Source of the DNA: Curvularia clavata
Taxonomy: Eukaryota
Reading direction: 5' to 3'
Assembly (NCBI GenBank): GCA_023920165.1
Contig: CP089281.1
Coordinates: forward strand, 1,922,001 to 1,986,000
DNA length: 64,000 nt
The first letter of the stretch is position 1. Each line of letters begins with the position of its first letter. The notes beneath the pieces were generated by a model. The model made no database searches. It was not told the DNA's origin and was given only the letters and a program-made list of their open reading frames with translations. Made by a program: the position numbers and the translations under genes. This document shows, piece after piece, positions 4,189 to 7,659 of the stretch.

Positions 4189-6504
4189 TCAAAAGAACGT
4201 TCCCTTTTGACCAGCACGAAGACTGCTGTTCTCAAGAACAGCATCAGCATCGTGGTCGTCAATCGCCCCAGGCCGGTCGATAGACCGGGGAATGGGTCGG
4301 TCGAAAGCGTCAAAGCGACGGCCCTGAACCTTGGCCATGACCCAGAGGAAACTGATGCGAAGAGCGCAAGCGCCAAAAGCCCACAAGAGACCGCCAAACG
4401 GCGCGGCCACGAAAGCTCCTGCCCAGAAGTTAGCAAACACGTACGATAATCGAATGGGACCAGCATTGACTTACCAAAAGCGCTCCAGTCATTTGCATAC
4501 AGTCCGCCCTCAAGTAAAAGCAATTTACCAGCAAGGGTGGCATCGCCATCATAGTACACAAGACCAAATAGAAAGATGGTGAAGATACCTCCAAGGCCTC
4601 CGACCACAAAATCAAAGCCACGGTACCAGTAGAACCTCTCACTCAAGCCAATGACCAAGCAGGGAACAACAGCCGCACTGACCAAATCACTGATCAAGAA
4701 GATTTGCAGAATATCCGGGCTGCGTAGTGCGACGACAACGACAGGGAAGATGAGGGCCACAACGCAGGCGCGGATGATCCATATGTTCAACTTGTTGCGG
4801 AAGAAGTCGTTGCTTCCCGTGCTAATCATGGCGGACTGGAAGGAGTCGAACGCAGCGGTTGAAAGCGAGACTGTCATGACGAGTACCACGCCTACAACCC
4901 AAGCAGGTAGCTTTTCAAGAAGAAGAAAGAAGGCGAGGGAGCCATTCTCTTCATCACCAATAGTGTAGGCACCGGACCATGCAGCGAGCATGCCCGCGAC
5001 GCCAAGCAGCGTGAGAATGATGAGTATGCCCATGCTTGCGAGTGAGACTCCAATCCACAAGTCCTTGTCTGTGCGAGAGGCAAAGGTGCGCATCCAGAAT
5101 CCTGAGAGGAAAAAGTCGTTGGTGAGGATCGCGACAGGGAGAATGTAGATGAGTTGCCATCCTAGCAGACTGGACTCAAGGTAGCCAGATTTGTCGATCA
5201 ACGAGCGGTCAATGTCGGTTTCAACGCCCACAGCAATCACTCCCAAGATGATGAGACCGATGACCATCACACCCTGGATATTGTCGGTTATAAAAGAGAC
5301 TTTGAAGCCACCAAGCGCTGTCGCTGTTAGTTGATCATCCCTTTGCTTTGACAAAATCACCCTTACATGTATAAATGGTAGTGACGGCACACTCGACGAT
5401 GACAACGGGAAGCCCATTCAATCCCGTCAGCAGTGTGACGATTTGTTGCAATGCAGACAGCTCGGCAACCATGTACAGAAACATGGTTATGAGTGTGCAA
5501 GCACTGAGGAATATGCCTGCAACTACCCCGTAACGCTGCCTGGTCCATTCAGTCAGGACAAAGCCTTCGGGGCATTTGCGTCTAATGATGGGTCCCAGCG
5601 CGCCGAAGACAAGAAGCGGCAGAGAGGAAGACAAGGCGTATACCAGTAAGCCCTGAACGCCAGCAATGGTGGCGATTTGAGGGTACGTGAATAGAATACC
5701 CGATCCGAGAGCTATGAGTTAGGAAAGCCTAGGTCAGCGTCAAGTCAATGAGGGGGAGGAAGGGGAAGTGTAAGGGGGAGTAGCGGCAGCACGTTCCTCA
5801 CGCAAGTATTATCTTGATCGAGTTCTTACGGTACTTCTCAGCTTCCCCTTGGCTGGAGTCAATACATCTCAGATGCATGGACCCAGCCTCAGTTCGGCGC
5901 CCGCAGTGTAGCCGCACAAAAGACTGACCTCATACCAGACGCGCAAGAGTAACAACGACTCTTGTGCGTAGTATTTTTTTGAAGCCAGCTTCTGCGAGAG
6001 ATCTCAATACGAACCTAGAGGATTTCAAATTGCCTCATACGAGGACATGCGCTCCAAACGACGACATGATCCTACTGACGATAAAAAAAAGTCGCCGATC
6101 ATGGTGGAATACCGATACTGCCGCTGCCTCTTCATGTGCAAAGCACAGGTGCACGAATGCACTCACCCGATGCGATGAAATTGAAAGCGAGCGGGACGCC
6201 TGTAACAATGGTCAGCTGATCTTCCTTTTCACTAAATACAAGGAAGAATTATTTTGCGCAAAAAAGGCGCAAAGCCGGGGAAGACGCTTATGCTGACCCT
6301 TCTGTGTGCGGTTGCTAGACAGCCACTCCGTCTTGGACTGGTGTCGCAGTCGCCATGCAACGAAGCATCCCAGGACCCTGAATCGTACATTGGTTAGGAC
6401 AAGTCCACAGGTCGCCAAAAACAAACTATGACGTCTACTCACAAAAAAGAGCCAAGGGTAAGGTAGATGATGGCGTTGGACGCCGGCTGCGATGGCATGC
6501 CCAT
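4189..6504 (-). CDS. Sodium:solute symporter family (DUR3-like) transporter, TPP-riboswitch-associated type (Neurospora NCU01977-like; probably thiamine or precursor related)
   Basis: Six exons splice in frame: 6504-6443, 6377-6298, 6199-6167, 5711-5367, 5317-4475, 4418-4189. Product MGMPSQPASNAIIYLT...NRTQKGVPLAFNFIASALGSGILFTYPQIATIAG...CPEGFVLTEW...LGGFKVSFITDNIQG... with many transmembrane segments. Confidence 0.9.
5783..5915 (-). ncRNA. TPP (thiamine pyrophosphate) riboswitch aptamer inside intron 3 of the SSS transporter
   Basis: The minus strand reads GCGGGCGC...GCUGAGAAGUACCGUAAGAACUCGAUCAAGAUAAUACUUGCGUGAGG. It has the conserved UGAGA junction, P2 GCGG/CCGU, P4 CUC/GAG, P5 CAAG/CUUG closing AUAAUA, a long P3 hairpin (GGCUGG..GUC..AUGCAUC/GAUGUAU..GAC..CCAGCC) and closing pairing GCGGC..CAC/GUG..GCCGC. 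Confidence 0.95.
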
Positions 6505-7059
6505 GGTGTGAGAATAGTCAAGATGCGAGGCGGGCGATCAAAGGCAAAATGGTGGATAGCTCTCGAGGATGCAGGTAAATCAGAGCCGCGAAGTTAAGAA
6601 CATTGGGCAGGCAGGGTTAAGGTAATAGTTCGCCCCAAAAACTTTTTTGCTCGTACTAGATCCCACGCCTTGCTTGTTGCATCACTAGCGCTGCACGGAG
6701 AAACTGGCCGCGGGTGTTAGACATGGGGGTTTCTCGTGGGGTGATGAGCACGCTGACTGCTACAAGGTTTTTGCTACGGCCCATTACAAGTCATACTAGA
6801 GGACTGTTCACGCAAGAGTAGGTTTAGGATATTATTGCATTCTCTGACCGAGTATCCGTTGTGTTCCTCCATAACTTGAAAATCGAGTACCAAATAGTTT
6901 CTCCAGAACGCCTCGTCGCTCCATCGCGCAGCAAATGCGGCATTATCGAAAGTAACATTTTCTCCGTCACCACCACCCCCCAAAACTATCGACTTAGACC
7001 TGCCTGTAGAAAATAATTTTGCTGGCGGTTCCTTGGTAGCATGACCTGCCCTGGCCATT

Positions 7060-7659
7060 CTACCATGCGTGCCTGTCCCAATTTGGGTCTGCCAAAATAT
7101 CAGTCGACGCTTTGAATATCCACTGCATATGGACTCACCCTGCACAAATGCCGCAAGCACCTTGCTGCCGGTTTGCAGTAGCGGATGGCCGACCACTATT
7201 TGCAGGAAGCGCTGAAGCCCTTCCCGTCGGTGCTCAATCACATCGTCGGAGAAGCGGTTGGTAAGGACCTTGCCCGGCAGCGGTGGTATGGTGACGCGCG
7301 CCGACTCTCGTTCGAGAATATCACGGAAGGCTTCGAATTCGCTGTACCGGCGGCGGACTGTCGACGACTTGAGCTTGAAGGCGGGGATGTTGGTGCGCAT
7401 GACGATTTCGTAGGTTGTGTACATGCCACGGCCGACTCCTAGCACCCTGTTAGTGAAGCTTGCTAGACACTCGAAGCGCTTGCACTTACCGTGTGTCATA
7501 GGGTTTCTAACCTGTGCACGCGACAAATGTGAGCAAGGCTGCAGGTTCACACAAGGGTACGGGAGCTCCAGATCAGCCTACCTCTATCTCCAGGAAGTTC
7601 TCGGGAGGGCCATACAGCTCCTCAAAGCTCTGCGATCGCGCATCGGGTAGGGACTGCAT
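7060..7659 (-). CDS. SNX3: Sorting nexin-3 (PX domain)
   Basis: Four exons: [45 protein letters not shown]...[12 protein letters not shown]...IPPLPGK...[12 protein letters not shown]. Confidence 0.95.

Follow-up and report, generated by a model that had tools for sequence, protein, structure and literature searches.

Only one well-studied eukaryotic riboswitch acts through a long-range helix, namely the thiamin pyrophosphate (TPP) riboswitch in the Neurospora crassa gene NCU01977. We describe here an intron of the same kind in a transporter gene of Curvularia clavata. The intron is 455 nucleotides (nt) long, is the third of its gene as delimited by joints in RNA contigs and occupies positions 6166–5712 on the minus strand of a 64,000 nt stretch of contig CP089281.1 (assembly GCA_023920165.1, positions 1,922,001 to 1,986,000). 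This whole stretch is referred to below as the window, and its numbering is used throughout. Bipolaris, to which one of the systems compared below belongs, is the sister genus of Curvularia.

In NCU01977, deletions together with disruptive and compensatory mutations established a pairing between two elements, α and α′ (Li & Breaker, 2013; PMC3597705), and the aptamer binds TPP in vitro (PMC3597705). According to the model given there, the long-range helix competes with P1, the closing stem of the aptamer, so that splicing favours the distal donor (5′ splice site) without TPP and turns to non-productive donors once the aptamer has folded (PMC3597705). The α element has the consensus RGCGGYRRY, the distances from the distal donor (S1) to α and from α′ to the 3′ splice site are short, and the arrangement is conserved in 16 of 18 riboswitch-bearing species, with two Pleosporales (PMC3597705). 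Mukherjee et al. (2018; PMC5882874) class α–α′ switches as ‘Type II’ and list the urea transporter of Bipolaris maydis under this type.

The C. clavata intron shares most of these features. As in NCU01977, an internal coding intron of an orthologous gene carries the aptamer at its 3′ end, α fits the consensus within 60 nt of S1, α′ forms the 3′ shoulder of P1 and engages α in 11 contiguous pairs, and an internal donor identical to the N. crassa site S3 (AG/GUUCGU) lies between α and the aptamer, with stops in the retained part which would truncate the product. The intron differs in length (455 nt versus 684 nt, N. crassa nts 246–929) and in the spacing of the arms (322 nt versus about 530 nt), 70 nt separate α′ from the 3′ splice site, and no counterparts of the N. 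crassa sites S2 or S4 were seen in the window. Because the tested features of Type II are present apart from the spacing of α′ and the 3′ splice site, the finding is a rediscovery in a new member; it adds a member and not a mechanism, sequence alone having led back to the known system. In our view, the intron very probably works as a Type II TPP riboswitch of the NCU01977/DUR31 orthologue, in which α–α′ is set against P1 and S1 against S3 or intron retention.

Three systems from the same order, in Bipolaris maydis (PMC5882874), Pyrenophora tritici-repentis and Stagonospora nodorum (both in Fig. 4B of PMC3597705), belong to the same gene family and the same long-distance type. In the available text these are catalogue entries, seemingly without RNA evidence, and C. 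clavata is named in neither listing. What the present analysis adds is RNA evidence for three splice forms in a Pleosporales fungus, a covariation set of 46 distinct introns and the near-invariance of one internal donor, AG/GUUCGU, wherever the α–α′ architecture exists. The NMT1/THI4-type switches (Cheah et al., 2007, as described in PMC3597705) likewise combine an intronic TPP aptamer with a choice between two donors in an OFF switch, but there a P4–P5 strand masks the proximal donor of an intron in the 5′ untranslated region, whereas here a distal element beside the first donor is the partner of the P1 3′ strand. The Candida DUR31 gene (Donovan et al., 2018; PMC5997356) is an orthologous thiamin transporter with an aptamer in a coding intron, in which thiamine represses productive splicing; its introns are short and a long-range interaction was deemed unlikely by the authors.

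The α–α′ helix in the window

A first-pass annotation of the window had pointed to an 11 base-pair complementarity between 6125–6115 and 5792–5782, composed of nine Watson–Crick and two G–U pairs. We find it exactly so: the minus-strand letters are AGCGGCAGTAT and GTGCTGCCGCT, respectively, and the 11 pairs are contiguous. The same annotation put the first arm about 40 nt into the intron and its partner about 325 nt away, which agrees with the 41 nt between the donor GT at 6166 and α and the 322 nt between the arms. It also held the pairing to be mutually exclusive with the closing stem of the aptamer, and this too is borne out, because 5792–5783 is at the same time the 3′ strand of P1; the stem consists of GCGGC-UA-CAC (5915–5906) paired to GUG-CU-GCCGC (5792–5783). 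Between 6166–5919 and 5800–5765 the helix is the only one of at least 8 base pairs, the next longest having 7. The α element, AGCGGCAGU, matches RGCGGYRRY.

Conservation in orthologous introns

Covariation of the two arms in orthologous introns had been proposed by the first-pass annotation as a check on its reading. Scanning metagenome contigs with the exon 4 peptide yielded 65 loci. Twelve of these are without exon 3, five having at most 10 nt of upstream sequence and seven having 201–812 nt with the aptamer core in all seven; in two further loci exon 3 is present, yet the 450 nt adjoining exon 4 contain no aptamer core. The remaining 51 loci have both elements; 47 of these are distinct, and 45 carry the α′ core GCCRY; together with the window these make up the set of 46 introns.

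At least ten contiguous α–α′ pairs, and up to 15, are found in 33 of the 46 introns, with α lying 13–79 nt behind S1, and the helix is accompanied by compensatory changes in the flank outside P1. The core GCGGC/GCCGC is invariant and, as it never varies, carries no information on covariation. The 5′ flank of α, which pairs beyond P1, varies on both sides (for example GAG/CUC, AAG/CUU, UCAGAG/CUCUGA and AUUAGAG/UUUAAU), with pair types GC 15, AT 6 and GT 3 in column 4 and AT 10 and GC 6 in column 5. The paired fraction of the flank is 0.64, compared with a maximum of 0.61 in 2000 permutations, and sliding the register by 1–3 positions gives a pairing of 0.25–0.64 compared with 0.89 in the true register. 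Pairs were counted by a script anchored on the GCCRY core because the MAFFT alignments (A1 and A2) shift α by three columns in rows of the window type, which contain a GC(A/G)GC repeat.

Four related loci have another architecture (L026, L029, L033 and L037): L026 is without an aptamer, and in the other three the aptamer is far from exon 4 or lacks a GCCRY α′. Like Candida DUR31, all four are without α′ and without the S3 motif. A different case is L049 (1980–2444), in which the aptamer has decayed (CTGAAGG for CTGAGA, no TAAT), α–α′ is broken (GCCAC, with no matching α) and the S3 motif is mutated to AGCTTCGT; judged by these letters, aptamer, α–α′ and S3 seem to decay together in this locus.

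Splice forms and the internal donor

Four coded public RNA runs (X1, X5, X21 and X22) were used as contigs placed on 5200–6700. Such contigs can drop rare isoforms, and stretches without contig cover, such as most of intron 3 in X22, were not counted as evidence. The productive joint, which removes the whole intron, occurs in all four runs. A second joint, 5711/6015, skips 303 nt with GT..AG ends and occurs in two of the four (X1 and X21, from two studies). Intron 3 is moreover covered throughout by contigs in X1, X5 and X21, the last of these forms being found in X5 without any S3 joint. Since introns 1, 2 and 4 have no cover, the retention is selective and not a carry-over of DNA. The RNA contigs are thus evidence for productive, S3-spliced and intron-retaining forms in a Pleosporales fungus. 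The first-pass annotation had foreseen an in-frame TGA in the retained start of the intron and a product of about 69 amino acids, and the stop is indeed present (6134–6132), with read-through giving 69 residues.

The donor of the second joint coincides with a block, AGGTTCGT(A), which is near-invariant and mid-intron in alignment A1 and lies at 6016–6009 in the window. The motif AGGUUCGU occurs exactly once in 44 of the 46 orthologous introns, the exceptions being L028 (AGGTTTAT) and L049, and always between α and the aptamer. Its letters remain the same across lineages in which exon 4 is only about 50–98% identical, and AGGTTCGT is absent from all four related loci without the α′ architecture. 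All 44 introns that bear the motif have an in-frame stop ahead of it, as is expected for most random sequence of such length. In N. crassa, S3 (nts 495–496) falls in ATAGGTTCGT (supplement of PMC3597705); the window donor at 6014 is therefore the orthologue of an alternative donor that has been observed experimentally. No single alternative donor was critical in N. crassa (PMC3597705).

We found no mention of the conservation of S3 in the available text of PMC3597705 or by literature searches, and an earlier description may exist; the invariant donor is possibly the sole point at which this locus goes beyond the literature. Its conservation suggests that S3 carries a constraint which the published model does not explain. 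Recursive splicing at the AG/GU of this site was considered and rejected: no joint 6167/6014 was seen, and neither a pyrimidine tract nor a branch site is conserved ahead of the AG. Visual inspection for partners of S3 in exon 3, P3 or P4–P5 gave nothing consistent.

Proposed mechanism

The pairing and its conservation, the splice joints, the intron retention and the stop codon are observations made on this locus and its relatives; the N. crassa experiments supply the direction in which the switch works and the causal part played by α–α′, and we infer that thiamine would be what drives it in C. clavata. At low TPP, α′ (5792–5782) would pair with α (6125–6115) and open P1. About 320 nt, including the alternative donor, would then be looped out, and splicing from S1 (6166) to 5712 would be favoured, leaving the reading frame complete. 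When TPP is high, the aptamer would keep α′ in P1 and S1 would lose its advantage; either the internal donor AG/GUUCGU (6014) would be used or the intron would be retained, and both outcomes would run into the TGA at 6134–6132 and yield the 69-residue product.

Several observations weigh against this reading. Judged from the window sequence by itself, the helix exceeds chance by a small margin only: a contiguous helix of at least 11 base pairs to the 44 nt zone after the aptamer core arises in 115 of 2000 dinucleotide shuffles, and the duplex energy of −27.2 kcal/mol is equalled or bettered in 27 of 1000. A fold with α–α′ forced is 5 kcal/mol better than one with P1 forced (−166.0 versus −161.0 kcal/mol), but the unconstrained fold of the 520 nt stretch contains neither (pair probabilities of about 0) and its minimum free energy of −173.3 kcal/mol lies 7 kcal/mol below that of the forced α–α′ fold. 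Folding of the whole intron is uninformative (z-score −1.64 for 481 nt). In 13 of the 46 introns there are fewer than ten contiguous pairs; nine of these have an α′ variant (GUGUCUGCCGC or GUGUUUGCCGC) that needs a bulge to pair, one (L001) has an interrupted pairing, and three (L049, L050 and L058) are doubtful. The covariation counts ignore the relatedness of the sequences and are biased upwards by the fact that α was located by its pairing. The 70 nt from α′ to the 3′ splice site exceed the ‘under 60 nt’ described as common in PMC3597705, and the intron is shorter than the 550–650 nt given there. As regards the RNA, the contigs of X1, X5 and X21 carry several differences from the window and come from close relatives, not from the same strain; the S3 joint is from the relatives X1 and X21, and X22, which is identical to the window but shallow, shows the productive joint only. 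The growth conditions of the runs are coded, and hence the joints speak to the existence of the splice forms and not to an effect of thiamine on them.

Among the alternatives, one concerns the OFF state itself. If TPP acted chiefly by weakening the use of S1, the main OFF product would be the unspliced intron and the S3 product a by-product. The retention of intron 3 alone in three of the four runs, in X5 with no S3 joint, agrees with this, as do the N. crassa findings that mutation of S3 alone left regulation unchanged and that an unspliced product (V) exists (PMC3597705), and in Candida DUR31 the OFF product is the unspliced form (PMC5997356). We nevertheless regard it as unlikely: a sequence that is identical in 44 of 46 introns and absent from four of four loci lacking the α′ architecture is hard to square with a by-product.

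Equally tentative is an added layer of control in which the 5′ aptamer strand U-R-C-G-G-G-Y (5905–5899), free in the absence of TPP, would pair with positions +1 to +7 of S3 and hide the donor, which TPP would release. All seven positions are pairable in 39 of 42 introns and six of seven in the other three, the A/G and C/U variants of the aptamer strand standing opposite U and G, and in 37 of 44 introns the motif has this site as one of its three best partners. Masking would explain why an otherwise unusual donor has an invariant +3U and +4C, and it would resemble the NMT1-type switch; the residual thiamine response left by deletion of α in N. crassa (PMC3597705) also points this way. If it were true, it would be a second route of aptamer control over splicing, perhaps the one that Li & Breaker call the ‘other undiscovered route’ (PMC3597705). 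Against it, the duplex has only −8.2 kcal/mol, a partner as good or better occurs in 215 of 300 shuffles of the remaining intron, and the two partners are near-invariant for other reasons, with no double changes; because both are invariant, covariation cannot decide the matter. In the same rather improbable range we place the broader idea that the ancestral switch was a two-donor device, pitting S1 against a fixed AG/GUUCGU as a sequence-specific part of the platform, with +3U and +4C perhaps held by masking with the freed aptamer strand in the absence of TPP.

Very unlikely is the proposal of the first-pass annotation that the working non-productive donors are GTATGA (6040), GTATGA (5935) and GTCAGT (5928). 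These hexamers exist, contigs can lose rare isoforms, and the N. crassa proximal site S4, just upstream of the aptamer, would allow species-specific extra donors (PMC3597705); however, they are three of the 17 GT dinucleotides in the loop between α and P1, no joint from any of them appears in the four runs, and they are not retained even in relatives with a 93–98% identical exon 4 (Table 1). The observation made by that annotation is thus confirmed and its NCU01977-like interpretation is right in its core, which matches the N. crassa model and is supported by conservation and covariation of the two arms and by the presence of both a productive and a non-productive joint, but it is wrong on the competing donors: the one seen, at 6014, was not on its list. 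That the complementarity is a functionless chance match, as the single-sequence shuffles taken by themselves might allow, is scarcely credible, since 33 of the 46 orthologous introns have the helix at the corresponding position, with compensatory changes in its flank, and its N. crassa counterpart responds to disruptive and compensatory mutation (PMC3597705).

Aptamer, host gene and feature coordinates

The features of the locus are collected in Table 1.

Table 1. Features of the riboswitch intron and its surroundings, in window coordinates.
Feature	Positions	Strand	Basis
α, AGCGGCAGUAU	6115–6125	−	Matches published RGCGGYRRY; after a C/A mismatch the pairing is extendable to 6127–6128
α′, GUGCUGCCGCU (P1 3′ strand plus one base)	5782–5792	−	Pairing analysis
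P1 5′ strand (GCGGC-UA-CAC), rival of α for α′	5906–5915	−	RF00059 match and fold analysis
TPP aptamer with 54 nt P3 insertion	5777–5914	−	RF00059, 43.7 bits, E 4.7e-7, model positions 1–105 of 105
Distal productive 5′ splice site S1 (GUGAGU)	6161–6166	−	Joint 5711/6167, skipping 455 nt, in 4/4 runs; GT at aligned columns in 46/46 introns
Alternative 5′ splice site S3, AG/GUUCGUAU (AG/GUUCGU), GU at 6014–6013	6007–6016	−	Joint 5711/6015 in X1 and X21; conservation; orthologue of N. crassa S3
3′ splice site AG, common to productive and S3 joints	5712–5713	−	RNA-contig joints
Probable branch site GCUGACC	5732–5738	−	Suggested by GCTAAC, GCTGAC or ACTAAC at the same relative place in orthologues
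In-frame TGA, read when the intron start is retained (69-residue product)	6132–6134	−	Sequence; frame set by joints
Exon 3	6167–6199	−	Encodes ..VPLAFNFIASG; joints 6198/6297 and 5711/6167 in 4/4 runs; peptide kept in orthologous loci
Exon 4	5367–5711	−	Joints 5711/6167 and 5317/5367
Decoy GTATGA, unsupported	6035–6040	−	No joint; GT at aligned columns in 1/46
Decoys GTATGA (5935) and GTCAGT (5928), unsupported	5923–5935	−	No joints; GT at aligned columns in 2/46 and 4/46

At the Rfam gathering score (54.3 bits) no match is obtained in the 64 kb window, and the aptamer becomes visible only with an E-value threshold; the long P3 insert costs score. None of 20 orthologous loci reaches that score for RF00059 either (0/21 including the window), so that it misses the whole NCU01977-type class although the N. 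crassa member binds TPP. Stems P1–P5 are complete, with the CUGAGA and ACC..GAAC..GAUC..UAAU..GCG..AGGA core, which is invariant in alignment A1, and TPP binding is predicted. The sole listed intron 3 contig of X22 consists of the aptamer only (5764–5914, 151 nt), and may reflect a stable fragment or patchy cover.

The joints place exon 1 at 6504–6443 and exon 2 at 6377–6298, followed by exons 3 and 4. Homologues of the large exon are Pleosporales proteins named urea transporter or Na+-proline symporter, the best being from Curvularia clavata with 98% identity, and several carry PF00474. Pfam returned no family for the two single-exon translations of the transporter that were submitted. On this basis the gene is most likely the Pleosporales orthologue of the NCU01977/DUR31 thiamin transporter. 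DUR31 and NCU01977 are thiamin transporters, thiamin transport having been shown in Candida (PMC5997356).

Upstream of the transporter, the adjacent gene on the minus strand (6774–7577) codes for a protein of the sorting nexin-3 type, whose PX domain is encoded at 7134–7577 (PF00787, E 3.3e-22). Several public gene models join the two genes into proteins of 600–680 residues that bear PF00787 under the name ‘Sorting nexin-3’ or ‘transporter’ (P0001, P0008, P0025, P0031, P0048, P0052 and P0094 among others). The fusion looks like an annotation artefact, because the RNA contigs start the transporter mRNA near 6584–6606. The locus thus exposes two practical problems, a gathering score that passes over the riboswitch class and public models that fuse the transporter to its sorting-nexin neighbour. 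Contigs of X5 and X21 end at 6584 with adapter-like letters behind, and this may be where the mRNA begins, about 80 nt before the ATG (6504).

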